Shown: positions 1,400 through 57,584 of the stretch, piece by piece | Layout: each line of letters starts with the position of its first letter | Numbering within the stretch: the first letter of the stretch is position 1 | Source of the DNA: Phycisphaerales bacterium | Lineage (GTDB): Bacteria > Planctomycetota > Phycisphaerae > WQYP01 | Assembly: GCA_027313145.1 (NCBI GenBank) | Contig: DAHVEJ010000001.1 | Location: 6,698-70,697, forward strand | Length of the DNA stretch: 64,000 nucleotides | Direction: 5' to 3' | Notes under the pieces: model-generated | Database searches by the model: none | Seen by the model: only the letters and a program-made list of their open reading frames with translations | What the model was told of the DNA's origin: nothing | Position numbers and translations under genes: made by a program

Positions 1400-1597
1400 C
1401 GGTGGCGTTCTATTCATGAAACGTATCATAAAGTAACTGTTTACCATAGTCGAACAGCGGTTGGCAACCTCGCGAAGAATTCCGGAATGTCGGCATGGCA
1501 CCGGCCCCCGCTACGGCCTCCGTCCGCCCTGTTCTCGTGCACCTGCCTCCCCAAGGTTTTCACCAAAAAGGCGTCAGGTGACTTTGTTTGGGGTTTG

Positions 1598-3532
1598 TCA
1601 CGGGGAAGTACGGCGGCTGCCGGTGAGATAGAGGGACAGCACCATGAGATCGGCGGGGGTGATGCCTTCAAGGCGGGAGGCTTGACCGACGGTGCGGGGG
1701 CGGAATTTTTCCAGGGCCTGCCGGGCTTCGGCGCGAAGTTCGGCGATTGTCTGAAAATTTAATTTCGGTGAAATGAGTTTATCCTCCAACTCCACCATGC
1801 GCTGGGCAGCATGTTTCTCCCGCAAGATATACCCGGCGTATCGCGTTTCAATTTGAATTTGCTCCAACAGCACGTGGTGGGATGGATCAGCCAGCAGCGC
1901 CGCCAGTTTTGGTCCGTCGGTGCCCAGCAGCGAGGGTAGAGCCTCTAATTCCACATCCGGGCGGCGCAGCAAATCCAAGGCGGTGCCGCCGCCGGGCACG
2001 CGGCAGGCTTTGAGATCATCCGTAAGCCGGCGCATGGCCTCCAATTTATTTTCCAATCGTCGGATGCGCGCCGGTTCCGCCAAGCCAATGAGTGCTGCCG
2101 CAGGCGTAAGGCGTTGATCGGTGTTATCGCTGCGCAAGGTCAGGCGATATTCCGCGCGGCTGGTGAACATGCGATATGGCTCGGTGGGAGTTTTGGTGAT
2201 CAGATCATCAATCATCACGCCGATGTACGCCTGATCGCGGCGAAGAATAAACGGTTTATCCCCGCGAATTTTTAACGCCGCGTTAATTCCCGCAATTAGC
2301 CCCTGTCCCGCCGCCTCCTCATAACCGCTGGTGCCATTAAGTTGCCCGGCGAAAAATAATCCGTCAGCGCGATGCGTTTCCAGGGTAGGTCCCACCTGAT
2401 GCGTTGGGGAAAAATCATATTCCACCGCATAACCATGGCGCAGAATCACCGCTTTTTCCAGCCCCACAATGCTGTGAACAAGTTGTTCCTGTACATCCAC
2501 CGGTAAAGAGGTGGATATGCCGTTGCAGTAAATTTCATGGGTATCCAGGCTTTCAGGCTCCAGAAAAATCTGATGCTGGGTTTTATCCGCAAAGCGGACC
2601 ACTTTGTCCTCAATGCTGGGGCAATAACGCGGGCCGCGGCTTTGAATCTGCCCGCTGTACATCGGCGCGCGGTGCAGGTTGGCGCGGATCAGGTCATGCG
2701 CCGCTGGATTGGTGTAAGTGATGTAGCAGGGCACTTGGGGCAGGCCGGGGAATTGCGGCCCCAGCGGCGCGGCCGCGGAGCCGGATAAATCACTAAATGG
2801 GATGGGCGGAATATCGCCGTGCTGCGGCTCAAGGGAGGAAAAGTCAACGCTTTGTCGCGCCACGCGCGGAGGCGTGCCGGTTTTCAGGCGTTGCAATTCA
2901 AAGCCCAGTTTTACCAAGGCACCGGACAATCCTACCGCCGCCTGTTCGCCGACGCGGCCACCTTCGGTTTTTTTTTCACCGGTGTGCATCAGGCCCCGTA
3001 AAAATGTACCGGTGGTAAGTATGGCGCAGCGGCAATTTAATTTTCTGCCGGATTTTAAGGCGATGCCGGTCGTGCGCCATTGCGGCATGTCCTGATGGCC
3101 CAGTGGATCTACGAGAATATCCTCCGCGATATCGGAGATAATCGTAAGGTTGGAGCAATTTTCCGTTAAAAGCCGCTGCACCGCCTGAGCGTAGCGGTAT
3201 TTGTCTGCTTGGGCGCGCGGCGATTGCACTGCCGGGCCTTTGGAGCGATTAAGCAGACGAAACTGAATACCGGCGGCGTCAATGGCGTGAGCCATCAGGC
3301 CGCCAAGGGCGTCAATTTCCCGCACCATCTGCCCCTTGGCTAATCCGCCGATGGCGGGATTACAACTCATGCGGCCAATGGCGGCGGGATCCATGGTGAT
3401 CATTGCTACCGTGCCGCGATCACCGAGCAGACGTGACGCGGCCCATGCGGCCTCGGCCCCAGCGTGTCCGCCGCCAACAACGATAATGTCAAAACATGCA
3501 GCTTGATCCGTCATGGGTGAAAAGTTAACCAT
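1598..3532 (-). CDS. mnmG: tRNA uridine 5-carboxymethylaminomethyl modification enzyme MnmG (GidA).
   Basis: FAD-binding N-terminus DIIVVGGGHAGAEAA and full-length MnmG-like sequence of about 640 aa. The true start is probably MTDQAAC at about 3514. Confidence 0.93.
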   Translation of the reverse strand: MVNFSPMTDQAACFDIIVVGGGHAGAEAAWAASRLLGDRGTVAMITMDPAAIGRMSCNPAIGGLAKGQMVREIDALGGLMAHAIDAAGIQFRLLNRSKGPAVQSPRAQADKYRYAQAVQRLLTENCSNLTIISDIAEDILVDPLGHQDMPQWRTTGIALKSGRKLNCRCAILTTGTFLRGLMHTGEKKTEGGRVGEQAAVGLSGALVKLGFELQRLKTGTPPRVARQSVDFSSLEPQHGDIPPIPFSDLSGSAAAPLGPQFPGLPQVPCYITYTNPAAHDLIRANLHRAPMYSGQIQSRGPRYCPSIEDKVVRFADKTQHQIFLEPESLDTHEIYCNGISTSLPVDVQEQLVHSIVGLEKAVILRHGYAVEYDFSPTHQVGPTLETHRADGLFFAGQLNGTSGYEEAAGQGLIAGINAALKIRGDKPFILRRDQAYIGVMIDDLITKTPTEPYRMFTSRAEYRLTLRSDNTDQRLTPAAALIGLAEPARIRRLENKLEAMRRLTDDLKACRVPGGGTALDLLRRPDVELEALPSLLGTDGPKLAALLADPSHHVLLEQIQIETRYAGYILREKHAAQRMVELEDKLISPKLNFQTIAELRAEARQALEKFRPRTVGQASRLEGITPADLMVLSLYLTGSRRTSP

Positions 3533-3654
3533 CCTTTTAAATATATGGGAAGACCGTTTTCAACTTTCAGCATGATAAGCAGGAAAGCCCAAAAACGTGA
3601 TCCATCGCCCGGTGCGCCTTTAAGCCGGCAAATCAGACCGGATAGAACCCTATC

Positions 3655-4752
3655 TTACCGCTGGGAAATCAGATCCGCCTCGCGTTGGCGTTGCGTAGCG
3701 CGGCGGAGAATGCGCTTTTCCCGGCGTGTTAAACTGTGCATTCCTTTCTCGCTGACTTTTTCGAGAATTTTGTCCACCATCTGCTGCTCTTTTCGGGCGC
3801 GATGATCACGTCGGCCAATCCAGTGCAGCCAGCGTTGCAAAAGCCGCTTGCGTTTAGGACCGGGCAAATCGCTGATATTGGCACTAGAGGAAATAAGCTG
3901 GTCAATGGTGCCCGGGCCATCCACCTGTAACGCGCGACGGCGCTGTAAAGAATCAAAAAACAGCATGGCGCACACCAGCATACCTACCACGTTCTTGCCA
4001 TAAGCGGCGAGCACAAATAACAAAACGGCGACCACCATGCCCGTCAGGCAGGTGAAATCCACGGATTTATACGCCCCGGTCATAGGCCAAAGAATCGCCT
4101 GCAGCAGGTAGGCCCCATCAAACCAGTAAAACGGCAGCAGATTAACGGCGACCAGAAAAATATTGGCCGCGCAAAACATATACAGGGCGGCGGCCAGGAA
4201 ATTCGGCGTTAAAAACATCGCGGTGGAATCAGGTTGCAGTTGGCCGAAGATCGCGGAGGACGATAAGGGTGTAACATGCCAATTGATACTGATGATGGTG
4301 CCGACAAACATGGCGACCAGGGCATTAGCCAGAATGCCGCCGCCCTGAGCGGCAAACATCGGCCAAGCCGCGGGCGGGTGCGTGGGCGGAATCATATTTC
4401 CGGCGGGCCACATCAGAAAGTCATCATGCCGGCCGCCGACAAGTTGAGCCGAAATCCTGTGGCCGAATTCATGGACCAATAGCGCTGCAAGAACTCCCGC
4501 GATGGCCAGCACGGCCAGCACCAGCGAGCCGGTATGCAGAGCGTAAAGCAAATCCATCGCAACCAGCAACAGCAGCCAGAAACTGGCCTGCACGCGAATG
4601 CCAAAAAAAGTTCCCAGCGGCAGCGACCAGGAAAGCAGGGATAAAACACCACCGCCCCCCCACGTTCCGCCGAACCCACGATTATAATCCCGGTCACGCC
4701 AACTCATATTTGCGGCACACTTTCCATTTGCAATATTCGCATCGGCCTTCAC
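3655..4752 (-). CDS. Peptidase M50 (site-2 protease family) membrane metalloprotease.
   Basis: HEFGH zinc motif inside a TM helix, multiple TM segments and a basic C-terminal tail. Confidence 0.75.
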   Translation of the reverse strand: MKADANIANGKCAANMSWRDRDYNRGFGGTWGGGGVLSLLSWSLPLGTFFGIRVQASFWLLLLVAMDLLYALHTGSLVLAVLAIAGVLAALLVHEFGHRISAQLVGGRHDDFLMWPAGNMIPPTHPPAAWPMFAAQGGGILANALVAMFVGTIISINWHVTPLSSSAIFGQLQPDSTAMFLTPNFLAAALYMFCAANIFLVAVNLLPFYWFDGAYLLQAILWPMTGAYKSVDFTCLTGMVVAVLLFVLAAYGKNVVGMLVCAMLFFDSLQRRRALQVDGPGTIDQLISSSANISDLPGPKRKRLLQRWLHWIGRRDHRARKEQQMVDKILEKVSEKGMHSLTRREKRILRRATQRQREADLISQR

Positions 4753-5318
4753 ACGCCAACACGATTCCTTATCAGATATTTTAACAGAACGGCAATGGTT
4801 TTCCCGTCCACGATCTCATTGGAGGCAATCATCGCGAGAATTTTATCCGGTGCCATGGCCTGCACCGTGATGGTTTCGTTTTCTTCCAGAGCCTGCGGGC
4901 CGGGGGTTAAACCGGTGGCAATAAAGGCGTACATTTTCTCAGTGAGAATCCCCGGCGAGGTGTAAAACCAGCCAAACGGTTTAATATCAATCGCTTGGTA
5001 ACCGGTTTCTTCAATAAGTTCCCTGCCGGCACAAAGTTCCGGTGGTTCCGGCGGTTCAAGCGTCCCGGCGGCTAATTCCCAGAGCCATTGGCCCACGGTA
5101 TGCCGCAGGTTGCGGATCATGACAATATCACCGTTCTGCAGCACGGGCAGGATAATCACAGCTCCCGGATGCAGCACCACTTCGCGCACCAATCGCTTGC
5201 CGGAAGCGCTGGTGACGGTGCGCAGGGCCATATCCACGCGTGTGCCCTTATAGACAATCTGGTCCTCAAATCCCATTGACGGCGTTGAACTCATGCTCAT
5301 AATCCTTTCGCGATCCAA
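4749..5318 (-). CDS. NUDIX hydrolase (ADP-ribose pyrophosphatase-like).
   Basis: Nudix box G..E....RELIEETG (AAGTLEPPE...CAGRELIEETG). Overlaps the upstream gene by 4 nt. Confidence 0.8.
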   Translation of the reverse strand: MDRERIMSMSSTPSMGFEDQIVYKGTRVDMALRTVTSASGKRLVREVVLHPGAVIILPVLQNGDIVMIRNLRHTVGQWLWELAAGTLEPPEPPELCAGRELIEETGYQAIDIKPFGWFYTSPGILTEKMYAFIATGLTPGPQALEENETITVQAMAPDKILAMIASNEIVDGKTIAVLLKYLIRNRVGV

Positions 5319-5357
5319 TTTAACACTTCGGTTCCAAGTCTCCTATAATAGCAACGT

Positions 5358-6959
5358 ATGTTACCAGTTTCCGAAACAAATGAGCCGGAATTGCCGCCCC
5401 CGGACGGGGATTTTGAAGAACAGATTGTCGAGGAAGTGCCGGTGGGCGAAGTAACGCTCATTTTGCCCACTGAGCCAACGGAATCGCGCATGGCCCGCCT
5501 GCACGCCAAAGCCCGTGCCCTGGAGCAGATTCCCGGCGTTTATCTGCTTAAAGATACACGGGACGTGGTGATTTACGTGGGAAAATCCCGATCCCTGCGC
5601 GACCGCGTCAGCAGCTATTTTATAGCCTCCACGGATTTAGGCCCGGTCAAACAGCGCCTGTTGGATTATGTCGTGGATTTTGACATCCTGACGTGTGATT
5701 CAGAAGTGGAAGCCCTGCTCATTGAGAGTCGGCTCATTAAAGATTTGCATCCGCGATTTAACGCCCGGCTCTCTGACGGGAAAAGCTACCCGTACCTGGA
5801 AATTACCACACGCGAGGATTTCCCCGGGGTCTATGTCACACGGCAGCCGCAAACCAGCGGCACGAAGCTTTACGGCCCTTTCATCAGCGGCTATGCGCTT
5901 AAACAGGCGGTCCTGTACATGCAGCGGGCCTTTAAGTTCCGCACATGTCATCTGGAAATTTATGAGGAAGATAACCGGCGGCGGCAATTTCGCCCATGCA
6001 TGCTCTACGCCATCAAGCAATGCACCGCTCCCTGTGCCGATAGAATTAGCCGCCCGCAATATCTGGAGGATATTGAACGACTGAAGAAATTTCTGGATTC
6101 CAGCCGGGGCGATGCGTTAAAGCAGATGACCGCGGACATGGAGGCGGCTTCCGCGGCGCTGGATTTTGAAACAGCCGCGCAGTTACGAGATCAGATTAAG
6201 GCCTTAAAATCCCTGGCGCACCGTGGCAAGGGGGCCAAAGTGATGCAGCCGGAATTGTTTTTCCAGGATCATCAGGCCGGCGTTCGGCAATTGCAGGACG
6301 TGCTGGAACTCGATGAACCCGTGCGGTCCATTGAAGCCATTGACATCGCCCATTTTCAGGGTGAAGCGACCGTTGGTTCACTGGTGAGTTTCATGGATGG
6401 CCGGCCGTTTAAGGGGGGCTACAAGCGATTCCGCATAAAAACGGTGACAGGCATTGACGATTTTCGGTGTATCGCTGAAGTGGTATCTCGGCGGTACCGG
6501 GAAGCGGGACATGGCAATGAATTGTATCCGGATGTCATACTCATTGACGGCGGTCTGGGGCAGCTTCACGCCGCGCAGGGAGCCTTTGCCCAGATGGATA
6601 TCAAGCCGCCGATGGTCATCAGTCTGGCCAAGCGTGAGGAAGAAATTTATATGCAGGGCCGAGCCACGCCGTTCAAGCTTTCCCGCACCAATGCGGCCTT
6701 GAAGCTCCTGCAATTTGCCCGTGATGAAGCCCACCGCTTTGCCCAAAGTTACCATCACCTGTTAATTGCCCGTCGGCAGTTTCAAGACACGCTGCGCGGC
6801 AGCACCGGGAAGCTTAAGATTAAGCGCAAAACCCGCTCAAAAGCAGCAGGTTCCGAGGCTTCCAAAGATAGTGCCACCCCCACAACCGATGAATTCAAAG
6901 TGTTATCCGAACAGGAAATTCGCGATCTGACCGCCAAACCGACTGCCCAACCACCTTGA
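5358..6959 (+). CDS. uvrC: Excinuclease ABC subunit C (UvrC), apparently lacking the C-terminal (HhH)2 domain.
   Basis: N-terminal GIY-YIG (GVYLLKD..VIYVGKS), UvrB-interacting region and RNase H-like endonuclease domain. It ends at 533 aa with a low-complexity basic tail. Confidence 0.88.
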   Translation: MLPVSETNEPELPPPDGDFEEQIVEEVPVGEVTLILPTEPTESRMARLHAKARALEQIPGVYLLKDTRDVVIYVGKSRSLRDRVSSYFIASTDLGPVKQRLLDYVVDFDILTCDSEVEALLIESRLIKDLHPRFNARLSDGKSYPYLEITTREDFPGVYVTRQPQTSGTKLYGPFISGYALKQAVLYMQRAFKFRTCHLEIYEEDNRRRQFRPCMLYAIKQCTAPCADRISRPQYLEDIERLKKFLDSSRGDALKQMTADMEAASAALDFETAAQLRDQIKALKSLAHRGKGAKVMQPELFFQDHQAGVRQLQDVLELDEPVRSIEAIDIAHFQGEATVGSLVSFMDGRPFKGGYKRFRIKTVTGIDDFRCIAEVVSRRYREAGHGNELYPDVILIDGGLGQLHAAQGAFAQMDIKPPMVISLAKREEEIYMQGRATPFKLSRTNAALKLLQFARDEAHRFAQSYHHLLIARRQFQDTLRGSTGKLKIKRKTRSKAAGSEASKDSATPTTDEFKVLSEQEIRDLTAKPTAQPP

Positions 6960-7063
6960 TTCAATAAAGCGATCCCGAGAGCACCGCGAGGCCCCTTCAC
7001 CGCTGCCCTGACCCGCCGTAGCGTTAGGCAGGAGCCCACCCGCTTGATCCGAAAATAGCCCTT

Positions 7064-7343
7064 GGAGACTGTCCGAGTAATGGCCGGGATTGCGATGGGG
7101 CTGAAATAGCCCGTATTCGCGGCGGAGGATCGAGCTGACTCTGGATAATGAGTCTGCGAGATCCGACAACAAAGCAGACGGGGCATTTCAGGCCCACCCG
7201 CAGGGCGGGATGCTTTTTGGCTCCCCTCTGCGGCGCAGTTCCTCGGCGTACCATCCGTGTCAGGTACGCCATCGTCGCTGCTTCTTGTATGTTGGAGCCA
7301 AAAATCATCCCGGCGCAACCTGGCCATTACTCGGACAGGCTCC
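7064..7343. repeat. Repeat family A, full-length copy: 280-bp element bounded by 22-bp imperfect terminal inverted repeats (GGAGACTGTCCGAGTAATGGCC ... GGCCATTACTCGGACAGGCTCC) with nested internal stems.
   Basis: TIRs at 7064-7085 and 7322-7343. Inner stem TTTTTGGCTCC/GGAGCCAAAAA (7214-7224 / 7294-7304) encloses hairpin GGCGTACC/GGTACGCC. A 145-bp 5' core is repeated at 32047-32192. Confidence 0.7.
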
Positions 7344-7613
7344 TAGATAACGCGGTGGGGTATTCCGGGAACAATGCGGGCAGTTCGAGGCATCAGGAAC
7401 AATGCACCATCATCTGGGCCGGGTGTCAAGAAACAGGTGACTGTCCCTAATTTCAGTGCCCGCCGCAGAATCTGGGGTAACGCTGTTTTCCCCACCCATC
7501 GCTTACATGCTTCAATTCAATTTGAACTTAACAACGCAAGCGGCTCTTGCCACGTCGTCAAGTCTTGCCTATAATCATTCATCAAAGCTCAACTACATTC
7601 TAGGAATGAAGCC

Positions 7614-9221
7614 ATGTTTCGCCATTGGGATTACCGTAGGTTCTGGATAGGTTGTTGGACGGTGCTGTTCTTATTGGCAACGGTATTGGCCATATTATGC
7701 CTCTGTATCGCGTTTCATGGCCCCCCCCCGGCCCTCAGCCTGCCTGTTCAAGGGCAAGTGACCGTGTCTCTAGCTACAGCGCTAAGTAGTTTTATCTATC
7801 ATCTCCCGTTTCGCTTGGCGATTTTTCTGCCATTATCAGCATTGTACGCAATCTGGGCGATTAAGGTGACAATCTACCTGAAATACGGCAGATTGTCTCT
7901 TGCTGAAAGCGACCTTTACCATGGTAAATCTCGCAACGTCAGTGACGAACTGCTCCCATCACGGCGTGCCCTTTTGGATATGATTATTAACACCATCAAA
8001 AATAATGATGGTCGAAGAACAATAACGGTCGAAAGCCGTTGGGGGGATGGGAAGAGTTTTCTATTGCAACAATTGGAGAAGGATCTGGGTTCGCAATTTG
8101 CGACCGTATGCCTGGACGTCTGGGAACACGCTACCGAGCAGGATCTCCATTTCGCTTTTTTCGAGGCTCTTTTGCGTAATGAGCATGTCATATTCAATCG
8201 CCGCGTGCGCGGCACCATACCCTGTCTGAGCTTACTGCTGACACTCATCCGCCGCGCCCTCTTCGGACTATCCAGCCGTTCATCGCTCTCTCTTTATTGG
8301 GCCGAAGCCGAATTCCAAGTTCCGTTACCAAGGCTGGGCTGGCAGTCGGACATGGAATCAATTTTTGGAAAGCTTAAAACCGGTAACAGGAAGGTGGTCT
8401 TTATCCTTGACGAAATCGACCGTGCCAACCCGGAAATCTGCCAGGCGGCAGTCTCATTAACCCAGCGAGCGCTGCGTGCGCCAAATGTATTCGTCGTGAT
8501 GCCATACGTTCGCGAACAAATGGAGTTCAAGGCATTCAATCCGCTGAGGCCGACTATGGCAGACATCCAGTCAACCATGTTCGGCGTGCTTTGGAAAGAT
8601 TGGAACCAGCTTCGAGATACCGAGGGTTTGAAATCCTCCCAAGGAAATCAGCTTCACTTGCAAGCTGATTGGCTTGGTTTCCCCGATAAATGGATGGGGG
8701 GCAAGATGGCCAGCAGCAGCGCTAGGCCAAAACGCCAAGGACAAAACCTCCGCGCCCGCATGGGCTACGCCAAATCGGAGAGCCCCTTCCAATATCTCAC
8801 GAATCGCCTCCACTGGTCCTTGTTAAAGCACTACCTTCAGGCCACTTCCCCGCACCAAAAACTGCTACGCTTTGCTTTCGCAGAAAAATTCCTGTTTGAC
8901 ATCCACTTCACAATCGACCCCCTGACCGACGTTGATATAGCCGCATCCCTCGTCAGTGTTTCTGAAATCCGGACGGCGCTCGGCGAGGGGATTGTAAACG
9001 ATAAAAGCTTCACGAACCTTGTTTGGGAGAAGATCAGGACCCACCCCGCGAAACCGCAAATAGCGGTGCCCACACTCAGACACTTTAAGAGTCGACTACT
9101 TGAGATGCTCCAAAAATGGAACGATAAGTCAACTACAAGCCAGCCCACTGCAGGCGATATCGCATCCTTAGCTACTATTGTGTACTTAGCCTATTTCTGG
9201 GCTGGTGCGTATGATACTTAA
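7614..9221 (+). CDS. KAP-family P-loop NTPase with N-terminal transmembrane segments.
   Basis: Walker A of KAP type (ESRWGDGKSF) and Walker B VVFILDEIDR. Four or more N-terminal TM helices. Local GC is clearly lower than its surroundings. Confidence 0.6.
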   Translation: MFRHWDYRRFWIGCWTVLFLLATVLAILCLCIAFHGPPPALSLPVQGQVTVSLATALSSFIYHLPFRLAIFLPLSALYAIWAIKVTIYLKYGRLSLAESDLYHGKSRNVSDELLPSRRALLDMIINTIKNNDGRRTITVESRWGDGKSFLLQQLEKDLGSQFATVCLDVWEHATEQDLHFAFFEALLRNEHVIFNRRVRGTIPCLSLLLTLIRRALFGLSSRSSLSLYWAEAEFQVPLPRLGWQSDMESIFGKLKTGNRKVVFILDEIDRANPEICQAAVSLTQRALRAPNVFVVMPYVREQMEFKAFNPLRPTMADIQSTMFGVLWKDWNQLRDTEGLKSSQGNQLHLQADWLGFPDKWMGGKMASSSARPKRQGQNLRARMGYAKSESPFQYLTNRLHWSLLKHYLQATSPHQKLLRFAFAEKFLFDIHFTIDPLTDVDIAASLVSVSEIRTALGEGIVNDKSFTNLVWEKIRTHPAKPQIAVPTLRHFKSRLLEMLQKWNDKSTTSQPTAGDIASLATIVYLAYFWAGAYDT

Positions 9222-9247
9222 ATAACTTGAACCGAAGGAGCTCCACC

Positions 9248-11173
9248 ATGGCGGCCGATAAAGCGGAACACAGTGAGAACCAGACGATTAAAAGCCCACG
9301 GGAGTATCCCCTGCAAAGTCTCTCATCGAACGTCTCGCTGAACACAAAGAGCGAGGAAACGCAAGCCGTTTCCTCCAAGGAAGAATCAACCGCGGAGAGC
9401 GTTTACGAACGCATGCTGAAAGACTCCTGGCGTCTGGGCCAAATTAAGCCCGACGCCGAAGGATGTAAGGAGTTTGTGAAGGCTTTTGCATCAAAATACC
9501 CCCACGATATGGTGATCGACCACTCGCCATATGCGCAGCGTCTGTCCAAAGAGCTGTCAACGGACTATTACCCGGATCGCTATGAGAAGATGCCCGGTAA
9601 CGCCATCCGACTCGAGCTGCTCGAGAGGTCACGCGACGCTGGGCAACGCGCATTATTTTTGAAAAATATAATCCCGAGCGCGGTGCTATCATTATCGGGC
9701 CGCAAACTACTTCGTCCAGTTCAACTGGTTGATTTCCTTTTGGATATCACCGAGCCGATCCCGGTATATCGTGCGGTGGACCTTGCCAAATGGATCGCGG
9801 CGTGCCGCGGTCACATCGCGAGCGTATCAACCAAGCTGCGTGACACCGACTACTACGGAACTGTGGGAAACTTGGCAATCCGAGTCGGGAGGCAAGACGA
9901 CCACAGGTGCCGCCGCGCTGCCATATATTATTATCATGAAATCCTTTCAGCCTACGCGCTCCGCGGCGCGGACTCTTACACGGCTGGCGATTACCATCTC
10001 CTCGAAAGTACAGCCAATAACTTGGCCGTGCGAGTTTCCGATGAAAACGAGTCGGAACAAAGGGACGACTTGCTCCGTAAACTTAAATATCTCTCAATCG
10101 GCGCGGTTCTCCGTTCGCGCACTGATAAATCCACTGCCACCCAGGCTGGCAGCGAGGCCATCTCCACTCCCACAAATGGTTCCGATGAGGGTTGCGGGCC
10201 AGCGCTCACGATCCTCCAAAACACAGGGGTTAGGTTTTCTGAGACGTCAGGCCAGTTCGACCAATGGCCAATTATTCTCGGCGGGATGATGACCATCCGT
10301 GAACCGTGGTCGAAATTGTTCAAGCAGAGCCACGAACTATACGCGTTTGTATATGCGACGGCAGCGGTCGCAAGAGCGTGCACAACCGATACCATTCACC
10401 TCGCACCCTCCGCATGCTTCAACGCTGGCGTTGAAATGCTCCGGTCAAACCGGCGATCCGCTTACGTGGCTGCCCGCGCTTTTATAAACTGTCTGGGTTT
10501 GGTATGGTCGCTTGATGCGTCCCCGGGAAACCTCCTCACTGCCCTTCGTGAGCACGATGGCCTCGACTGCCTCACTAATCTTTTGGGGGCCCTGGTGGAA
10601 TCGGGTGACCAACCGCGCCTCAAAGACTCATTGCAACTTCTCGTCTGCGGAGCAGCTCCAGCACTAAAGGAAGCGTCTTACGACGATAGTCGGCGTATCG
10701 AGAACAGCTCACGAAAGCTGAAGCTGGACTTCGACCTCCCCAAGGATTGCTCGACCGATGAGATGAAAACGGCAGCTTTAAACGTCTTGCGGAAGATGAG
10801 CGAAGACATACCCAACATTCCGCCACCTGGCGAAATTGGACTGGCGAACTGGGCCGCCAGTGCCCTACCGAATGTATTTTTCTCAGTGATTGGCCCTCAA
10901 GGAACCAAAGAACTTGCGGACAGCCTTGCTTCGATCCTCGCCGAGGTCAGCGATAAAGTTAACGAACCTTTGAGTGGCCTCTTGGAATTCTACAAGCCAC
11001 TTGCCGGGAGCGAAAACGCCGAAACTGGTAAAGGCCCGCTAGTCGATATCGGCGCGATAAATCAGCCGAATTGGAAGGAGATAGCGAAGGCGGCAGTCAA
11101 CAATTCCGCAAATAGTCCTTCCGCCTTTGCAACGGCCCTCCGACAGGCTGCACAATGGGCTTCCGAGAAGTGA
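9248..11173 (+). CDS. Hypothetical 641-aa protein of unknown function, probably co-transcribed with the KAP NTPase.
   Basis: Long ORF in low-GC context. The GAAGGAG RBS sits about 7 nt upstream of ATG 9248 (the ORF track start at 9227 lies inside the RBS). No motif recognised by eye. Confidence 0.6.
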   Translation: MAADKAEHSENQTIKSPREYPLQSLSSNVSLNTKSEETQAVSSKEESTAESVYERMLKDSWRLGQIKPDAEGCKEFVKAFASKYPHDMVIDHSPYAQRLSKELSTDYYPDRYEKMPGNAIRLELLERSRDAGQRALFLKNIIPSAVLSLSGRKLLRPVQLVDFLLDITEPIPVYRAVDLAKWIAACRGHIASVSTKLRDTDYYGTVGNLAIRVGRQDDHRCRRAAIYYYHEILSAYALRGADSYTAGDYHLLESTANNLAVRVSDENESEQRDDLLRKLKYLSIGAVLRSRTDKSTATQAGSEAISTPTNGSDEGCGPALTILQNTGVRFSETSGQFDQWPIILGGMMTIREPWSKLFKQSHELYAFVYATAAVARACTTDTIHLAPSACFNAGVEMLRSNRRSAYVAARAFINCLGLVWSLDASPGNLLTALREHDGLDCLTNLLGALVESGDQPRLKDSLQLLVCGAAPALKEASYDDSRRIENSSRKLKLDFDLPKDCSTDEMKTAALNVLRKMSEDIPNIPPPGEIGLANWAASALPNVFFSVIGPQGTKELADSLASILAEVSDKVNEPLSGLLEFYKPLAGSENAETGKGPLVDIGAINQPNWKEIAKAAVNNSANSPSAFATALRQAAQWASEK

Positions 11174-11443
11174 AACGCGTGCGGGAACTGTTTTGGGGTG
11201 CGATGCAATACAGATTTGCGGCAACCCGCCCGAATTCGGAGTTGTGGGAGCATGCATGTCGGTGTAAGTCCTCGTTGCAAATTGTAGATTACGGAACCGC
11301 CCTGATGGTCGGACTGAACAAGCACTTTCACCGTAACGGCGCGAGGCCGGGGTTACAGGTTACGGGCTACGGGCTACGGGTTAAAGTGTCACGTCCTGAT
11401 AAAGGTTGTCACTGTTGGCAACGGAATTATCAGGAGTTTTGGT

Positions 11444-11818
11444 ATGCGTGTACGTGTAATAAAGCGGTATAGTGAGTACTTCAAAAGGCAGGTGGTTGAC
11501 GAGTTGGAGAATGGTCGATTCACATCGATTACCGAGTCGCGGCTTCACCACGGGATTACGGGCGGAACGACGATTCAGACGTGGTTAAAAAAATATGGAA
11601 GGAATCATTTGATGGCGAAGGTGGTACGGGTGGAAAAGCCAGGCGAACAAGATCAGTTACGTGCGTACAAAAAGAGGGTATCGCAGTTGGAGCAGGCCTT
11701 GGGGAAGACTCAGGCGGAGAACCGCCCTCTATTTGAAACGATCAAGACGCTTCTCATGAACGCCTGGGCCGGTAAAAATCCCGGCCTGCTTACCGATGTT
11801 CTGGTCGACTCCTCCTGA
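11444..11818 (+). mobile_element. IS3-family transposase OrfA (HTH/leucine-zipper part) with no OrfB (DDE) following: truncated IS remnant.
   Basis: MRVRVIKRYSEYFKRQVVDELENG... is typical IS3/IS911 OrfA. An inverted repeat CCTGATAA..TTATCAGG and a TGTCACT terminus lie just upstream at about 11395-11435. A permease gene starts 80 bp downstream. Confidence 0.7.
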
Positions 11819-11901
11819 ACTTACCTGCCGGAGCCGCTGAGCGGTAAACAGTTACGGGTGCCGGTTATAGCCGCTTGCTCCAGATAAATCCCTGTCGGCG
11901 A

Positions 11902-12870
11902 TCAGCCTTTAATTCCGGTGGTGGCGATGCCTTCAATGAAGGTGCGTTGGGCGATAAAAAAGAGGATTACTACCGGGAGGATGACCAGAACGCTGGCGGC
12001 CATCAGCAGGTTCCATTGGCTGCCGCCTAATTGGGATTGAAACGCGTCCAGACCCAAGGCCAGCGTAAACTGATGGGAGTGCTGCAGGTAGACCAGCGGG
12101 CCAAGGAAATCATTCCATACGCCGAGAAAAGCGAACAACGCCACGACACTTAATGCCGGGCGGGCCAGAGGAAGAACAATGCGAAAAAATATTCCCAGTT
12201 CAGAGCAGCCGTCAATGCGCGCCGCTTCAGAAAGTTCATCCGGGATGGTAATGAAAAATTGCCGCAGCAGGAAAATGCTGAATGCGGAACCAAACCAGTA
12301 AGGGACCCAGAGGGGGCGGAAAGTTCCCAGCCATGCGATACCGGTATAATCACCGAGCCACTTGAAGATAATAAACATGGACACCATGGTGACGGGGAAC
12401 GGAATCATCATGGTGGAGAGCATTAAAGCAAATAACACGCCCCGACCGCGGAAGCGAATTTTGGCAAACCCATACGCCACAAAAGCGCTGGAAATCGTGG
12501 TACCCAGCACCACCAGCACGGCGATGGTCAGGCTGTTACGCGCCCAAAGCAGCATGTGATACTGACGCTCTGAAAACAAGTTGACATAATTCTGCCAGCG
12601 GAAAGGCGCGGGAATCAGGGTTGGCGGATATTGCGTAGCACTTGATTCGGTTTTGAAACTCGTATCCAAAAGCCAGAGAAAGGGCACCAAAGCAAGAAGT
12701 GATGCCATAAGCAGTAACGCGTGCGACAAGATACGCCGGCTTATATGCCGCGCAGGGCCCGGGGGGGATTCAGGTGGGGCAGCGGGACCTTGAGAAGCTT
12801 CCGCGGCGGCCGGGAAATTTCCACGCAGCAAATCCGTGGAGACCATATTGACCGGAAGTTTTTCAGCCAT
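11902..12870 (-). CDS. Carbohydrate ABC transporter permease (MalG-like).
   Basis: EAA loop EAARIDG and six TM segments. The N-terminal extension in the ORF is probably over-called. Confidence 0.85.
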   Translation of the reverse strand: MAEKLPVNMVSTDLLRGNFPAAAEASQGPAAPPESPPGPARHISRRILSHALLLMASLLALVPFLWLLDTSFKTESSATQYPPTLIPAPFRWQNYVNLFSERQYHMLLWARNSLTIAVLVVLGTTISSAFVAYGFAKIRFRGRGVLFALMLSTMMIPFPVTMVSMFIIFKWLGDYTGIAWLGTFRPLWVPYWFGSAFSIFLLRQFFITIPDELSEAARIDGCSELGIFFRIVLPLARPALSVVALFAFLGVWNDFLGPLVYLQHSHQFTLALGLDAFQSQLGGSQWNLLMAASVLVILPVVILFFIAQRTFIEGIATTGIKG

Positions 12871-12873
12871 GCG

Positions 12874-13764
12874 TCATTTTCCCTGATAATGAACCCAATG
12901 CCGACTGCTCCAGAATGCGACGCCGGTAAGAATCAGTACCATCAATAATTCCACCCAGGCCATGGCGCTGGCGTAGCCCATGTGCAAAAAGCTGAAGGCG
13001 TTGTCGTAAAGGTACATGGTAAATAAATAGGTAACCCGGTCCGGGCCGCCCTGCGTCATGACATACGGCACCGTGAAATTCTGAACAACACCGATAATAG
13101 CCATGATGAGATTAAAAAATATGACCGGCGAAATACCCGGAAGTGTCACATGCCACAACTGCCGAGCCGGGCTGGCACCGTCAATTTCCGCGGCCTCATA
13201 CAACTCTTTGGGGACATCCTGCAAGCCGGCAAGGTAGATGACAATGGTGTTACCTAAACCCCAGAAGCTCATGATCGCCAGGGACGGCATCGCCCACTGC
13301 GTTGTCGTCAGCCACCCCGGCGGGTGGGCAACCCCCAGATATCTTAGAACGGTATTAATTAATCCAAGCCGCGAATTAAACAACCAGAGCCACACCATGG
13401 ACGATGCCACCAGAGGCACCAGTGACGGCAAAAAAATAATGGCGCGATAAATGGAAATCCCCCTCACGCGGCTATTTAGCAATAGCGCTGCTCCAATGGC
13501 GATGATCATTCCCGCGGGGAGCGTCAACAACGCGTAATAACCGGTGTTTCGCAAAGATTCCCAAAATACCGAATCATGCAGCATGGCATGGTAATTTCTC
13601 AGGCCCACAAAGACCGGCGGTTGCAGCAACGGATAATCGCAGAAACTCAAATAAAGTGACAGGCCGATCGGCAACGCCATAAAAACAGCAAAGCCAATAA
13701 GCCAAGGCGAAAGAAATGCCAGGCCCTTAGCCGTCTGCCTTATCTCATTTCTCCACTGAATCAT
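12874..13764 (-). CDS. Carbohydrate ABC transporter permease (MalF-like).
   Basis: EAA loop EAAEIDGASPARQLWHVTLP. Polytopic. Confidence 0.85.
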   Translation of the reverse strand: MIQWRNEIRQTAKGLAFLSPWLIGFAVFMALPIGLSLYLSFCDYPLLQPPVFVGLRNYHAMLHDSVFWESLRNTGYYALLTLPAGMIIAIGAALLLNSRVRGISIYRAIIFLPSLVPLVASSMVWLWLFNSRLGLINTVLRYLGVAHPPGWLTTTQWAMPSLAIMSFWGLGNTIVIYLAGLQDVPKELYEAAEIDGASPARQLWHVTLPGISPVIFFNLIMAIIGVVQNFTVPYVMTQGGPDRVTYLFTMYLYDNAFSFLHMGYASAMAWVELLMVLILTGVAFWSSRHWVHYQGK

Positions 13765-13822
13765 TAAACCGATTCCTCCAGTGACCCGTGTGATTCCGCG
13801 GTCGCCGCACTATTTTTCATCA

Positions 13823-15265
13823 TCATTTTTCAGCCCTTCGCAATCGCTGAACGCGTTCATAACTGTCATATTCACGCTGCAGGCGATGTTGCGCTTTCTC
13901 AAGAGCGCGGGTGGGCGTGCGTTCTAGCAGGGCCACGGCCTGGGCCTCGGTATTAAGTTCATCAATAACTTGAGGCATTATCGGAATTTGCGGCAATCCA
14001 CGCGCGTTGGGACTGTTGGCAAGTTTCTCAAACACATCAATGTATGGATTGGGATTATGTTCGATAAAATCTTTACTGACTTTGCGTAGCGGGGAGTTCT
14101 TGCTCATCATGCTGCAGAGATGCTCCATGACCTTCTGGCGTTGAACGTACGCAATAAACGTAAAAGCCTGCTTAATATGTTTGGCACCGCGCGGAATGAC
14201 AAAGGCGTCAAAACCACAATAGGAAACATCTTTCATTCCCGGCACCGCCGATGGAAATGGGGCTACGGCCCAACCATAATTTTTGCGTCTCTCCGCCAGC
14301 GGCATCGTTAGAGCCTTGGCGTAGGACCAGTGCAGGGTGGAGAGATGCTTGGCATAACTATAAATGTAATTGGCCATCCATGGCCCCTGCTGCTCCATGG
14401 CCAGCGTTCCGAGCATGAACGGATTTTGCGCCGATTCAAAATTTCCCTGGGCGGACGTAAAAGAGTTAATGGCCTGGGGCCCCAGCCACTTGGAATAACT
14501 GGCGATCCAGCGATACGCGGCGACGTCCTGCGGGCTGGTGAGGGTGAATTTACCGGTCTTGGCATTCCAGATATGCCCGCCAAACCAGAAAAACACTTCC
14601 GGAAAATACCAGCCCGGTTCGGTGGGCAAAAATCCGGCCCGCAGCAACTGTCCCTGGGGGCCGAATTTAGTCAGCACGCGGGCATAAGCGTCAAGCTGCC
14701 GGATGGTTTGTGGGGCTTGGTTGGGGTTTAACCCGGCGGCTCTTAATTTGGCGGCATCACGCTTGAAAATCAATTTATTGTAGACCAATGCAATGTCGGC
14801 CGGCGTACTTACCAGCGCATACAGCCGACCATGATAGTGGCACGCGGTCCAATAAACCTTCTTATACGTTTTGCGGGTAATACCATACTCTCGGGCAAGA
14901 TGCCCCAGAGGGGTCAGGGCACCGAGGGATGCATACTGCGCCACATCATTATCCCAAAGCCCCGCGATATCCGGAGGCACACCGGCGGCGGTGGCTATGA
15001 GTGTTTTTTTGTCGATATCCGCCATGGAAACAAACTGCACAAAAATATGTTTTTTCAAGCCCACCGTCGCATTGAAGTCATTGACGATGATCCTCATCTG
15101 CTGTTCTTCCGGCCCGGTCCATTTCTCCCAGTAGGTGACAACGACGCGGCCTTTGGGAACTCCGGCTTTTTGCCGAGGCCCAAAAAACAAGATGGCCAGC
15201 GCGGGCACCAGCAATAACACGAAGCCGATGTTTTTCAGCATTCGTTTCATTTGCGACCTCAACAA
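13823..15265 (-). CDS. ABC transporter extracellular solute-binding protein (family 1, sugar).
   Basis: N-terminal signal/TM anchor and SBP family 1-like sequence. Sits in an operon with the two permeases. Confidence 0.8.
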   Translation of the reverse strand: MLRSQMKRMLKNIGFVLLLVPALAILFFGPRQKAGVPKGRVVVTYWEKWTGPEEQQMRIIVNDFNATVGLKKHIFVQFVSMADIDKKTLIATAAGVPPDIAGLWDNDVAQYASLGALTPLGHLAREYGITRKTYKKVYWTACHYHGRLYALVSTPADIALVYNKLIFKRDAAKLRAAGLNPNQAPQTIRQLDAYARVLTKFGPQGQLLRAGFLPTEPGWYFPEVFFWFGGHIWNAKTGKFTLTSPQDVAAYRWIASYSKWLGPQAINSFTSAQGNFESAQNPFMLGTLAMEQQGPWMANYIYSYAKHLSTLHWSYAKALTMPLAERRKNYGWAVAPFPSAVPGMKDVSYCGFDAFVIPRGAKHIKQAFTFIAYVQRQKVMEHLCSMMSKNSPLRKVSKDFIEHNPNPYIDVFEKLANSPNARGLPQIPIMPQVIDELNTEAQAVALLERTPTRALEKAQHRLQREYDSYERVQRLRRAEK

Positions 15266-16437
15266 AACCTTGGCGACATTTATACTATGCGCAAAATTCC
15301 TTTTTCGCCACTAGGAGCATGTCCGGGTGCTCTGTAACGCCTAAAAAAACGCCCGGCAATTCAGCAGCCAAAGGCCACCGAATTGCCGGGACAGGTCTCT
15401 CCCCCCCTCCGGGGGGGGTGAGCCTTGCGCCTTCCGCCGTGGGAAAGGCGCAAAGCCACCGCACTTCTCTCTCTTTCTCCCTCCGCAAATTGTCTTTCTA
15501 CCAGGCGCGCCCAAAGGCGCTGACGAACTTGAATCTTTGGCCGCAACTCAGGAGCGTTCCCGGGTAATACCCGGACAGGCTCCTAGACGGCCATGGCGCT
15601 CTAACTCATCCAAACCCGTCCGATGACGGATAAACAAACCTCTCGCTCCCTCCATGGGGAAATCAAGCCACAAAATTTTTCTCATACGGGCGAATACCGC
15701 GAACCATAAGCTCATCGTGAGACCCATGGATTGCTGATTTTGAATTGCGTCAGCACGCGGATTAATTTTCGCCTCTTCTCTTGTGCAGTGTTTCAGTCGA
15801 TATGTGTCTGAATTCTTGTTACCTGCACAGTTAATGTATCGGCAGATACGCCCCGGAAGCACACAAAAAATTCGCGATTTTCCCCAGCAAATTCAGGGGT
15901 TCCAATAACATTACGCCCTGATAAAACTCCGCCGGTAAAAACGGCCGGCGAAGCACTTAGAACGCCGGAGTCAGTAGATGGTGACACCGGGCGCGCCCTG
16001 CGACCAAAATATCAGTGATCGCGATTCCGACGCATTCTAACTCCTATGTGCTCATGCAACGCCTAACCCATATCTCGCCATCCCCGCAGGTGATCTGGGC
16101 AATTTTCCCGGGCGGGGTCAATATTGTTGTTTAATGGGTGGGATCGCGCCAATGACAGCCGGAACCTTCGGCTGCGGCGGGCGAGTTTTTCGCGACGCGG
16201 CGGCACATTAAATGTGCCGGCTAACATCACTGATGAGGTGCCCCCCCGCGGGTGATCTGGGCAATTTTTCATCCACCGTGCCCGGTCATGCGTATAATGG
16301 GGTGACTTGGTGGAGTGCACTGTAAAAAGTCGAGTCGGCATTGTGCCGGCATAAGTATGAATAAGTTGTTGCGGTGATGCTGATGGTGGTCATCGGTACG
16401 CTAAAACAAGGTCTCTTTTTTGTGGAGTTGCGTTATG

Positions 16438-32046: not shown

Positions 32047-32192
32047 GTCTAGGTGCCTGCCTTTCCGAGTAATGGCCGGGATTGCGATGGGTTTGAAATG
32101 CGCCGTATGCGATACGGTTGATCGAGCCGACTCTGAATAAGTAAGTCCGCGAGATTCGACAACAAAGCTGGCGGGGCATTTCAGGCCACCCG
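32047..32192. repeat. Repeat family A, partial copy (5' 145-bp core only, no right terminal repeat).
   Basis: Matches the left TIR and core of 7064-7208 at about 85% identity with small indels. Confidence 0.7.
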
Positions 32193-32246
32193 CGATGCGA
32201 CGGCCCGTCGGATAATGTTTGTAGTGCTGCCGATTCAGGACGAAGT

Positions 32247-37470: not shown

Positions 37471-37553
37471 TGGTCTTTGAGCGAAGCGCCCACGGTCGCG
37501 ATTCCGGCCATTGGTCGGACAGGCTCCCGGATTTCGTCAGGAAACGGCGCGGA

Positions 37554-47362: not shown

Positions 47363-47421
47363 CGGATAGAATGATAATTGCTGTCGCGGCAAATGGCAAG
47401 CGTGGCAGCGTGTCGCGTGAT

Positions 47422-47630
47422 GGAGCACCGTGGTGATAACCCGGCGGTTGGCTTGCGGCATGAGATCAACCACCGGATTACCATCCGGTGCTATGCGGAC
47501 GCGTCCGGTTAAAGAAAAAAGGTACCTGACACCTTTTTTCATGGCCGTGGCATAGAGCACCGTGGTGATAACCCGGTGGTTGGCTTGCGGCATTGGATCA
47601 ACCACCGGATTACCATTCGGTGCTCTTGAG
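47422..47630. repeat. Two 75-bp direct repeats (47422-47495 and 47557-47630, about 90% identical). Each contains hairpin CACCGG-ATTACCAT-CCGGTG. They are separated by an A/T-flanked bidirectional terminator-like hairpin (47509-47536).
   Basis: Direct reading. Lies in the divergent intergenic region between the ArsR-methyltransferase gene and manA. Confidence 0.65.
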
Positions 47631-52900: not shown

Positions 52901-53514
52901 TCAAGCAGAAATGCCGCGACCTGAATCTGCTGCGCCCGCAGGTGGTTTACGGCTACTTCTGGGTTCAGGCGGAAAAAAATGATTTAATTGTTTATGCCGA
53001 GGATAAAAAAACGCAGCGTCTGCGTTTTCATTTTCCCCGGCAACCGGGGCGCAAACGTTGGTGCCTTTCGGACTTTTTCCGTTCCGTGGATTCCGGCGAA
53101 ATGGACGTTCTGGCGTTGCAGTGCGTGACGGCGGGATCGGCCGTGGCCCCGTATGAAAAACAACTGTTTGAGCAGGGTGATTTCACCGAGTATCTCTACA
53201 TTCACGGGATGGGCGTACAGATTGCGGAAGCGTTGGCGGAAATGTGGCATAAACGCGTTCGCCAGGAATTGGGCATTGCGGATAAAGATGGTCCCACCAT
53301 GCGCGATATTTTCGCCTGCCATTTTCAAGGCTGCCGCTACAGCTTCGGCTACCCGGCCTGCCCGGATTTACAGGATGAAGAAAAGCTTTTCGCCCTGTTG
53401 GATCCCGCGCGCATCGGCTGCACATTATCCGAAAATTGGATGATTCAGCCGGAGCAATCCACCTCCGCGATGATCGTTCACCACCCCGAAGCCCGTTATT
53501 TTAACGTGCTGTAG
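49966..53514 (+). CDS. metH: Cobalamin-dependent methionine synthase.
   Basis: All four modules (Hcy-binding, pterin-binding, B12-binding and AdoMet activation) in 1182 aa. Confidence 0.97.
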   Translation: MSKKIENQNTSGLKQGAAGPMESHPFLDVLKHRVMVFDGGLGTQIFAANLTLADFNNLENCPEVLVLSRPDVIQSIHESYYAAGSDTVETDTFGASKIVLAEFGLQDQCREINRKAATLARNAANKFSTPDRPRFVAGSIGPGTKAITLGNTTFDIMHDSYLEQVRGLLDGGVDAILIETCFDLLQAKVAVIAATDAMEEMGVRVPIMVQVTMETVGTMLLGTEMNAVITTLEALPVDVIGMNCATGPELMRPHVETLSQNCTRYLSVQPNAGLPVLHEGRTHFPLGAAELAKAHVEFVQQFGVNIVGGCCGTTPEHIRAVAAAVAQLKPAVRSAHGRKMDAAHATISSLYSAVDARQDNSILIIGERTNTNGSKKFRDCLLAADWDTLTAIGREQVKEGSHVVDVCVDYVGRNGVPDMTDIVRRFAKEVTAPLMIDSTQLDVIEAGLQAAPGKCIVNSINLEDGEEKLARMAALLKRYGAAVVAGTIDEDKIEAMAKTADRKIEIAKRLYDLLVNKYGIPETNIYFDPLIFPIVTGQEEVRRLALETIDGIRRISEELPNCHTTLGLSNVSFGLKPYARLVLNSAFFNECVKAGLTSAIVHASKILPQNKIDPEHYQWALDLIYDRQREDYKPLQLLTNLGAPAKVAEATEQLPLEEKLRRHIIDGDKQKLSEHLDQAMTKYAPLDIINDHLLAGMKVVGDLFGSGQMQLPFVLQSAEVMKAAVAYLQPFMPKSEGQSRGRMVLATVKGDVHDIGKNLVDIILSNNGYTVVNLGIKQPIANIVQAAKEHNAQIIGLSGLLVKSTLVMRDDLQELNRLGIDIPVILGGAALTRGYVEKDLRDIYKGPLFYGKDAFEGLRVMDHVATGKISEILVATGESRQQADLRAKAGASPVTPETDIPKITCDDYANSGIRTDVAVPALPFYGSRVVTDIPVDAVFPYIDEVALFRGQWQFKSGTMPRDEFRQWTESHVRPIYNRIKQKCRDLNLLRPQVVYGYFWVQAEKNDLIVYAEDKKTQRLRFHFPRQPGRKRWCLSDFFRSVDSGEMDVLALQCVTAGSAVAPYEKQLFEQGDFTEYLYIHGMGVQIAEALAEMWHKRVRQELGIADKDGPTMRDIFACHFQGCRYSFGYPACPDLQDEEKLFALLDPARIGCTLSENWMIQPEQSTSAMIVHHPEARYFNVL

Positions 53515-53789
53515 CTGCGCCGCGTGGCCATAGCGCTGCACCAGATGCCGCATCGCACGGCAAATTGCGGGTAGAAAAAGAGGCTGACCTGGCCGTGATA
53601 AAATACCCATGGGTAATAATTGGCCGGAAGTATGCAGGAGGCACTACCCATTATCGACGACTGTTCGTATGGGGCGGATATTCCAATTGTCCAAGGGTAT
53701 TTCTCAACAGCACGTGAAAATCGGCGTGATTCCATCTGCATGGTCAAGGCCGACCATTTACTCTTGCGTAACGAAAAGGAGTATAAACG

Positions 53790-57257: not shown

Positions 57258-57584
57258 AGTAATTTCTGCATCCACGGGATGGGCGTACAGATTGCGGAAG
57301 CGTTGGCGGAAATGTGGCATAAACGCGTGCGCCAGGAATTGGGCATTGCGGATAAAGATGGTCCCACCATGCGCGATATTTTCGCCTGTCATTTTCAAGG
57401 CTGCCGCTACAGCTTCGGCTACCCGGCCTGCCCGGATTTACAGGATGAAGAAAAGCTTTTCGCCCTGTTGGATCCCGCGCGCATCGGCTGCACATTATCC
57501 GAAAATTGGATGATTCAGCCGGAGCAATCCACCTCCGCGATGATCGTTCACCACCCCGAAGCCCGGTATTTTAACGTGCTGTAG
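57258..57584 (+). pseudogene. Duplicated 3' fragment of metH (last about 108 codons), near-identical to 53190-53514.
   Basis: Protein tail HGMGVQIAEALAEMWHKRVRQELG...HHPEARYFNVL is identical. Only a few synonymous nucleotide differences. Homology continues about 60 nt past the stop codon. Confidence 0.85.

Follow-up and report, generated by a model that had tools for sequence, protein, structure and literature searches.

A Horizontally Acquired Gene Pair Encoding a Membrane-Anchored KAP NTPase and an Uncatalogued Helical Partner in a Phycisphaerales Genome

Introduction

Do the two genes that lie between uvrC and a sugar ABC transporter operon in a Phycisphaerales bacterium form a foreign and functionally linked unit, and may such a unit act in the conflict with phages or mobile elements? 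In this study, we analyzed a stretch of 64,000 nt, hereafter the window (GenBank assembly GCA_027313145.1, contig DAHVEJ010000001.1, positions 6,698 to 70,697 of the forward strand), in which a KAP-family P-loop nucleoside triphosphatase (NTPase), referred to as gene A, is followed by a protein gene of an uncatalogued family, referred to as gene B. A sequence-only reading of the window had proposed the pair as a horizontally acquired cassette and a candidate defense or abortive-infection module. To our knowledge, the proposal that KAP NTPases are membrane-associated conflict proteins dates back two decades, and protection against phages has been shown for them only in 2025–2026 and only as single-chain fusions to regions of unknown function.

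Results

Conservation of the Gene Pair

Our analyses strongly supported that the KAP gene and its partner constitute a conserved, undescribed and co-inherited two-gene module. A partner homolog or its remnant was present directly 3' of the KAP gene at all of the ∼25 distinct loci with downstream room, and the pair was spread over Planctomycetota, Actinomycetota, Myxococcota and Proteobacteria. The earlier suggestion of an undescribed conserved pair was thus borne out in at least four phyla, and no description of the KAP-partner gene pair was found in the literature. A total of 13 KAP relatives were found, and all those looked up were directly followed by an uncharacterized gene homologous to gene B, coding for 608–633 aa save in one lineage where it was cut to 351 aa. 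The scan of species-representative genomes gave 10 loci, carried by Streptosporangiaceae, two species of Sphaerisporangium, other Actinomycetota, Egibacteraceae, Myxococcota, Sulfuricella, an "Enterobacterales" metagenome-assembled genome (MAG) and an unclassified bacterium. At nine of these the partner homolog was recognized by hidden Markov model directly after the KAP gene, and at the tenth (L019) a divergent partner member lay downstream (hhalign 98.8%, E 7e-17). The partner was also present in 7 of the 8 metagenome loci with downstream room, the remaining locus (L030) keeping only its C-terminal ∼40 residues.

The two genes are closely coupled. Gene A and gene B are separated by 26 nt, one fewer than the 27 nt of the sequence-only reading, which had otherwise described both open reading frames (ORFs) correctly in position, strand and length (Table 1). 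Across the loci, the spacing of the KAP and partner genes varied between −8 and +32 nt, with frequent ATGA or GTGA overlaps. The pairing was also seen from the partner side, as all four distant or long partners that were checked (1316, 1213, 819, and 793 aa) had a PF07693 gene immediately upstream. In addition, the divergences of KAP and partner co-varied over 13 loci (Mantel r 0.92, p 2e-4), with the partner diverging faster (mean identity 24% vs. 32% for KAP).

Several departures from this organization were considered and rejected. L019 and L030 were not retained as exceptions to the pairing, because the ORF of the former is a divergent member and that of the latter a C-terminal remnant (3096–3251 of the locus). 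Fusion of the two genes was rejected as well: ten long partner relatives (814–1316 aa) lacked any Pfam domain, and the two longest partners together with two others were each preceded by a separate KAP gene. We likewise rejected a conserved third gene, given that no upstream ORF was common to the loci and a downstream Lcl_C gene occurred in L002 and L022 only.

Some details of individual loci were also recorded. The Lcl_C (PF07603) gene directly 3' of the partner occupies 4477–5967 of L002, a Logan metagenome contig, where it starts 50 nt past the partner (E 5e-29), and 3993–4862 of L022, a Sulfuricella MAG, where it overlaps the partner stop codon (E 8e-26). A protein with MORN and FGE-sulfatase domains is coded two genes upstream of KAP in L040 and L041. 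There were signs of decay of the module in some lineages: in one Streptosporangiaceae species the partner was cut to its C-terminal 351 aa, as seen in four independent assemblies (L005, L006, L015, and L031). In L024 the pair was split over several frames, perhaps as an artifact of assembly.

Gene A Encodes a KAP-Family NTPase

Gene A was confirmed to encode a KAP-family P-loop NTPase in which Walker A and Walker B are both intact, as the sequence-only reading had recognized from the motifs RWGDGKS and ILDEIDR and the N-terminal transmembrane (TM) helices. Its match to PF07693 (46.6 bits, cut-off 20; E 3.7e-12) extended over aa 123–296, covering profile positions 7–188 of 293 only. In the alignment of the KAP subfamily (A3, 10 members), K147, D266, E267, I268, D269, R270 and the motif KAFNP were invariant. 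The NTPase is apparently active, because the Walker A lysine and the Walker B DEID belong to these invariant residues. Further features of the subfamily in the same alignment included an LLPSQ motif, a Walker A of the form GRWGxGKSF, the motif DVWExQxExDLH and a Walker B of the form VLDEIDR, and the C-terminal region of ∼230 aa was helical. A sequence search of the PDB with the KAP profile returned generic P-loop similarity only, to Cdc6/Orc1 (E 0.002).

Membrane helices were called from Kyte-Doolittle hydropathy and point to an anchor in the inner membrane. The two N-terminal hydrophobic helices of gene A reached peaks of 2.88 and 1.81, and all 13 KAP homologs examined had 2–4 hydrophobic helices ahead of Walker A. 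Between Walker A and Walker B there was a weak peak only (aa 201–219, 1.55), in which two Arg residues occur. The TM helices of KAP proteins are reportedly inserted in the P-loop domain in the classical case, a description attributed to Aravind and co-workers in 2004. Four TM helices lying outside this domain are described in a 2026 preprint. Upstream of gene A, a sigma-70-like promoter match was identified, which is a consensus match only: the count of such matches in the region was at chance level, and this was the sole near-perfect site.

Gene B Represents an Uncatalogued Helical Family

Gene B had no match in Pfam, NCBIfam or PADLOC, in agreement with the earlier remark that the 641-aa protein carries no recognizable motif. 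The Shine-Dalgarno-like AAGGAG supports the start codon that gives 641 aa, and the Logan gene call uses the same start. Word-indexed homology search, with the single sequence or with a 7-sequence profile, found P0001 only; the partner family was defined by an exhaustive HMMER search across 1.84 billion representatives and comprised 150 clusters at 50% identity; the 90% cluster of gene B itself is represented by a 56-aa fragment. None of 70 family members matched a tetratricopeptide repeat (TPR) model or PADLOC, and their Pfam matches were at chance level, TetR_C_8 and HEAT_RRP12_N in one member each. Searching the PDB sequences with the partner profile retrieved designed helical repeats only, at E > 0.02.

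The AlphaFold model of gene B reached a predicted local distance difference test (pLDDT) of 84.8 and a predicted template modeling score (pTM) of 0.81 with an 81-sequence alignment, whereas a 2-sequence alignment gave 37.5. In the model, ∼47 disordered residues at the N terminus precede 27 helices; strands and hydrophobic membrane segments are absent. Foldseek found nothing significant for it in the PDB or among viral models; the nearest structural neighbors, none of them a significant match, were generic TPR-like solenoids. Gene B is predicted by its model to be a soluble, helical-repeat-like protein that may resemble TPR-like solenoids. Within the conserved core of the family (Table 1), N392 and N444 were invariant and F391, R410, G417, G438, C441, and V443 near-invariant, and the alignment contained no conserved stretch of 7–10 residues. 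A catalytic cysteine is unlikely since C441 is replaced in some members. No enzymatic signature was seen in gene B, and the nuclease, protease or pore-forming fold for which the sequence-only reading had suggested looking did not appear in the model. The confident all-alpha model points to a scaffold or sensor rather than an enzyme.

The Pair Lies on a Foreign Insert

It was strongly supported that the two-gene cassette has been acquired horizontally, as had been claimed from the sequence alone. This conclusion rests on the empty site of close relatives and on the oligonucleotide signature of the insert, the most atypical of the window. Three contigs from close relatives (L025–L027) shared 89–91% nucleotide identity with positions 1571–6986 and 11902–15313 of the window by blastn. 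In these relatives uvrC is followed by 118 nt of unrelated spacer and then the ABC permease gene, where the window has 4915 nt containing a putative miniature inverted-repeat transposable element (MITE-like repeat), the KAP gene, gene B and an insertion sequence (IS) remnant resembling IS3 OrfA. On the left of the insert lies uvrC (5358–6959, + strand), and on the right a minus-strand sugar ABC operon with two permease genes (11902–12870 and 12874–13764) and a binding protein gene (13823–15265). The flanking repeat and IS remnant also argue for acquisition, together with the 90%-identity clusters: that of uvrC held 34 sequences (1 annotated from a Phycisphaerae MAG) and that of the KAP protein a single member. 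No clear target-site duplication was found at the insert borders by inspection by eye. A possible RNA element was also rejected, as no Rfam family matched the region at E ≤ 1.

The visible drop in composition noted earlier proved real, and small. The insert had the lowest GC content among windows of its size (0.524, within the lowest 0.3%; window mean 0.550, standard deviation 0.012); most of the dip resides in the KAP gene (0.507), whereas the partner gene was at background (0.544). Dinucleotide delta* was 99.5 vs. 41 ± 16 and tetranucleotide distance 0.0183 vs. 0.0120 ± 0.0019, and both were the highest among windows of the same size. The GC drop is real yet modest, and the oligonucleotide signature is the clearer sign of foreignness.

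At the left edge, the inverted-repeat-bounded element described by the sequence-only reading is indeed present. An exact 15-mer recurs in its inverted ends (7071–7085 and 7322–7336), and with up to 2 mismatches it matched the window 4 times, against a chance expectation of 0.12. The left ∼135 nt alone (cf. 7069–7203) recur in a second, partial copy at 32061–32193 (84% identity). Because of this copy elsewhere in the window, the repeat may be native to the host rather than part of the cassette. The copy diverges past ∼135 nt, and no counterpart of the right inverted end was present close by; on the minus strand, 5.4 kb away (37506–37520), the terminal 15-mer was matched with 2 mismatches, which could be due to chance or mark the far end of a larger element. 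At the right edge, the proposed truncated IS3 OrfA was supported in part. Its profile matches were weak, HTH_Tnp_1 scoring 14.1 bits against a cut-off of 24.1 (E 0.055) and IS2 TnpA giving E 0.009. The ORF did share 34.5% identity over 96% of its length with a Bernardetia "transposase" ORF located directly 5' of an IS3-family OrfB. There is no OrfB in the window, and merely 83 nt separate the ORF from the permease gene; an OrfA-like ORF without OrfB is an IS remnant, not an intact IS3 element.

Table 1. Positions of the insert, its genes and their sequence features in the window.
Feature	Position	Strand	Remarks
Insert between uvrC and sugar ABC permease gene	6987–11901, 4915 nt	none	blastn synteny breaks at 6986 and 11902 vs. 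L025, L026, L027
MITE-like non-coding repeat	7061–7346, 286 nt	none	34-bp imperfect terminal inverted repeats 7061–7094 / 7314–7346
Sigma-70-like promoter match TTGCCA-17-TATAAT (11/12)	7547–7575	+	39 nt 5' of KAP start codon
Gene A, 535-aa membrane-anchored KAP-family P-loop NTPase	7614–9221	+	Pfam PF07693
Predicted N-terminal membrane anchor	7659–7874	+	hydrophobic helices aa 16–34 and aa 69–87, weaker segment between
Walker A RWGDGKS, aa 142–148	8037–8057	+	alignment A3
Walker B ILDEIDR, aa 264–270	8403–8423	+	alignment A3
Subfamily motif KAFNP, aa 306–310	8529–8543	+	invariant in 10/10 sequences of alignment A3
Shine-Dalgarno-like AAGGAG	9235–9240	+	7 nt 5' of ATG 9248
Gene B, 641-aa partner, predicted soluble and all-alpha, uncatalogued family	9248–11173	+	
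Conserved core of partner family, aa 390–449	10415–10594	+	FNAGV...R..LN.LGL.W.L...AL....GLDC.VNL.GA; alignments A1, A4, A5, A8
IS3-family OrfA-like ORF, 124 aa	11444–11818	+	right edge of insert; no other copy in window

Discussion

Comparison With Known Systems

Neither Pfam nor the 2023 PADLOC database contains the module, and we compared it with the systems that it most resembles. The closest in layout are single-chain KAP antiphage proteins, namely EF_KAP and three metagenomic relatives, which are likewise rare accessory genes coding for TM helices, a KAP domain and a domainless region of at least ∼300 aa (PLoS Biol 2026, PMC13552941). In EF_KAP the TM-bearing KAP NTPase is fused to a C-terminal region of unknown function, and both this region and the Walker B motif are required for the protection of Enterococcus against phage (PMC13552941). 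In the window, the corresponding region is a separate, translationally coupled protein of ∼600 aa with a family of its own, and the membrane helices are all N-terminal; the pair also lacks a serine-recombinase or defense neighborhood.

PifA, the F-plasmid NTPase that excludes phage T7, shares the KAP P-loop family with gene A. Its defense is reported to act through membrane depolarization and nucleotide leakage, and KAP ATPases are described as often carrying repeat or accessory sensor domains (PMC13001434). However, the PifA model (PDLC02361) matched gene A at E 0.0034 and 14 bits over aa 126–175 only, well short of full length, and PifA is described as plasmid-borne, without TM helices and without a partner of the gene B family. 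QatA is also a KAP-type ATPase and acts with partner proteins in the multigene system QatABCD, but its model (NF041923) scored 12.6 bits against a cut-off of 600, no QatB, QatC or QatD was found nearby, and gene B is unrelated to them. The best PADLOC match of gene A was the candidate PDC-S20 (E 2e-9, 35.4 bits), confined to the P-loop at aa 116–186 and to profile positions 22–93 of 464 rather than full length; PDC-S20 is, moreover, a single-gene candidate. STAND/NLR sensors, including Avs and related proteins, follow a shared logic in which a P-loop switch is combined with a helical-repeat sensor, the TPR arm. In the window, nSTAND_NTPase5 reached 17.9 bits against a cut-off of 34, the putative sensor resides on a separate chain, and there is a membrane anchor and no N-terminal enzymatic effector. 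Finally, Tmn is, like gene A, a membrane-anchored P-loop NTPase, which reportedly senses a phage protein and arrests infection by a membrane-linked effect (preprint); unlike gene A, it belongs to another NTPase family, bears its TM helices inside the P-loop domain, and is a single gene without helical partner. By the tests run, the module is not a member of QatABCD, PifA, PDC-S20 or STAND. By analogy, it would work most like the single-chain KAP defense proteins, or like a STAND sensor split in two chains.

A Possible Role in Conflict

With these precedents (PifA, the single-chain KAP defense proteins and the transmembrane NTPase Tmn), the reading that we tentatively place first is a conflict system, in which a split membrane-tethered NTPase and a sensor would exclude phages or mobile elements; we consider its chance to be slightly under even. 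Under such a mechanism, gene A and gene B would assemble in a fixed stoichiometry on the cytoplasmic side of the membrane. Within this complex, the helical protein may serve as a ligand- or protein-binding sensor or adaptor, comparable to the repeat arm of STAND/NLR proteins placed on a separate chain, and the KAP NTPase may be a nucleotide-driven switch whose oligomerization or membrane domain gives the output. Exclusion could then be achieved through membrane perturbation or nucleotide depletion. The rare and patchy spread of the genes across phyla would, judging by the homologs retrieved, be typical of accessory conflict genes. A bolder form of the idea, which we put forward as doubtful though conceivable, is a family of two-component membrane immune sensors, a "split NLR at the membrane," in which the TPR-like subunit would recognize the invader and the KAP ATPase would collapse membrane function or the nucleotide pool, with horizontal spread across at least four phyla.

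Several results weigh against a role in defense. First, the defense-island context that the sequence-only reading had proposed as a check was not recovered: 1 of 61 neighboring ORFs at 9 genome loci was defense-like, in what is a small sample, and the defense or abortive-infection reading stays an analogy. The sole such neighbor was a 355-aa ABC-type ATPase at 5190–6254 of L023 (PADLOC HEC-02A E 1e-78, HEC-02B E 3e-64), located on the other strand ∼1.4 kb upstream of KAP. Elsewhere the Pfam-annotated neighbors were metabolic, housekeeping, regulatory or envelope genes, such as glyoxalase, aminotransferase, MarR, Usp, hemC, rsmE, polysaccharide deacetylase, COX15, and an RND pump, and no defense-related Pfam domain was seen among the neighbors at those loci. 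Second, searches of 72,556 plasmids, 50,697 phage genomes and 2.9 M IMG/VR contigs gave no homolog. Third, neither protein has a recognizable effector domain, and gene A matches the known defense models PDC-S20, PifA and QatA over the P-loop only. In addition, the module occupies apparently the same chromosomal position in two Sphaerisporangium species, with homologous flanking ORFs, which suggests stable vertical inheritance there. It is because of this contrary evidence from context, namely the neighbors, the lack of mobile carriers and the shared Sphaerisporangium site, that we hold the defense reading no more firmly and keep a role outside defense in serious consideration.

Alternative Explanations

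Kidins220/ARMS-type KAP proteins are proposed regulators of the NTP-dependent assembly of membrane complexes. The pair might accordingly be a membrane-associated signaling or scaffolding module unrelated to defense, with KAP regulating such assembly and the TPR-like partner recruiting a cellular client, for example of the envelope, of transport or of development in bacteria of complex lifestyles. We regard this as rather unlikely, while the strongest of the alternatives. The overwhelmingly metabolic, regulatory or envelope character of the neighbors fits it, although no consistent neighbor gene points to a pathway. Many carriers are Streptosporangiales, other Actinomycetota or Myxococcota, and the position apparently shared by the two Sphaerisporangium species suits a settled cellular function; yet close relatives of the window genome live without the pair, and what they lack is a compositionally foreign insert with mobile-element debris. 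The predicted fold of the partner is of a protein-binding type, neither enzymatic nor toxic, and a third gene with an Lcl_C domain follows the pair in two loci, both of which would be in keeping with a scaffold. Against this, the family is rare (150 clusters) and scattered across phyla, and its truncated or remnant partners (L005/L015/L031 and L030) indicate dispensability.

Alternatively, the pair could be a selfish cargo or maintenance module, acting for example by addiction or exclusion and delivered by the flanking IS and MITE without benefit to the host, which we judge improbable. The IS3 OrfA remnant and the MITE-like repeat do flank the pair in the window, the insert is strain-specific, and a second case of mobile-element debris was observed in L040, where an HTH_29 gene and an IS21 IstB fragment (12440–13621) lie downstream of KAP and the 1316-aa partner. 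However, no transposase or integrase was detected near most loci, plasmid, phage or viral-contig copies were not found, and the additional partial copy of the repeat allows that it is native to the host.

It is very improbable that in this genome both genes persist as decaying, functionless remains of an old insertion: the adjoining IS is already truncated and the partner has been shortened to 351 aa (L005/L015/L031) or nearly lost (L030) in other lineages, but here both ORFs are full length relative to the family, K147, DEIDR, KAFNP, N392, and N444 are all kept, and a near-consensus promoter match and a strong ribosome-binding site are present.

Significance of the Partner Family

The locus represents a two-gene version of the KAP systems with an obligate new partner family, which has no match in Pfam, PADLOC, NCBIfam or the PDB sequences and whose confident all-helical model looks new. 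Since the putative sensor and switch occupy different chains, the regulation of KAP NTPases would be easy to dissect in this system. If the role in defense is true, the pair adds a system from the poorly sampled phyla Planctomycetota, Actinomycetota and Myxococcota; if not, it is still a strictly co-inherited pair of membrane NTPase and adaptor, and under either reading the partner family merits a family definition.

Other Observations in the Window

The UvrC of this lineage, coded beside the insert, is short (533 aa). Its GIY-YIG domain scored 21.5 bits, under the Pfam cut-off of 22.6, the C-terminal HhH domain was not detected, and a related NCBI entry is named "UvrB/UvrC motif-containing protein."

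Farther from the insert, direct repeats were found at 53192–53491 / 57262–57561 (300 nt, 98%) and at 53760–53827 / 58210–58277 (68 nt, 82%), with a spacing of ∼4.1–4.4 kb, and these paired repeats suggest that a gene or block of genes was recently duplicated in tandem. A repeat unit of 73 nt, containing GGAGCACCG...GGTGATAAC..CCGG..GGTTGGC, was also present at 47420–47492 and 47552–47624 (93% identity, 132 nt apart). It may belong to a family of intergenic repeats of the lineage that resemble repetitive extragenic palindromic elements, and a string resembling the unit occurs in the 118-nt spacer between uvrC and the permease gene of L025 (11620–11700).

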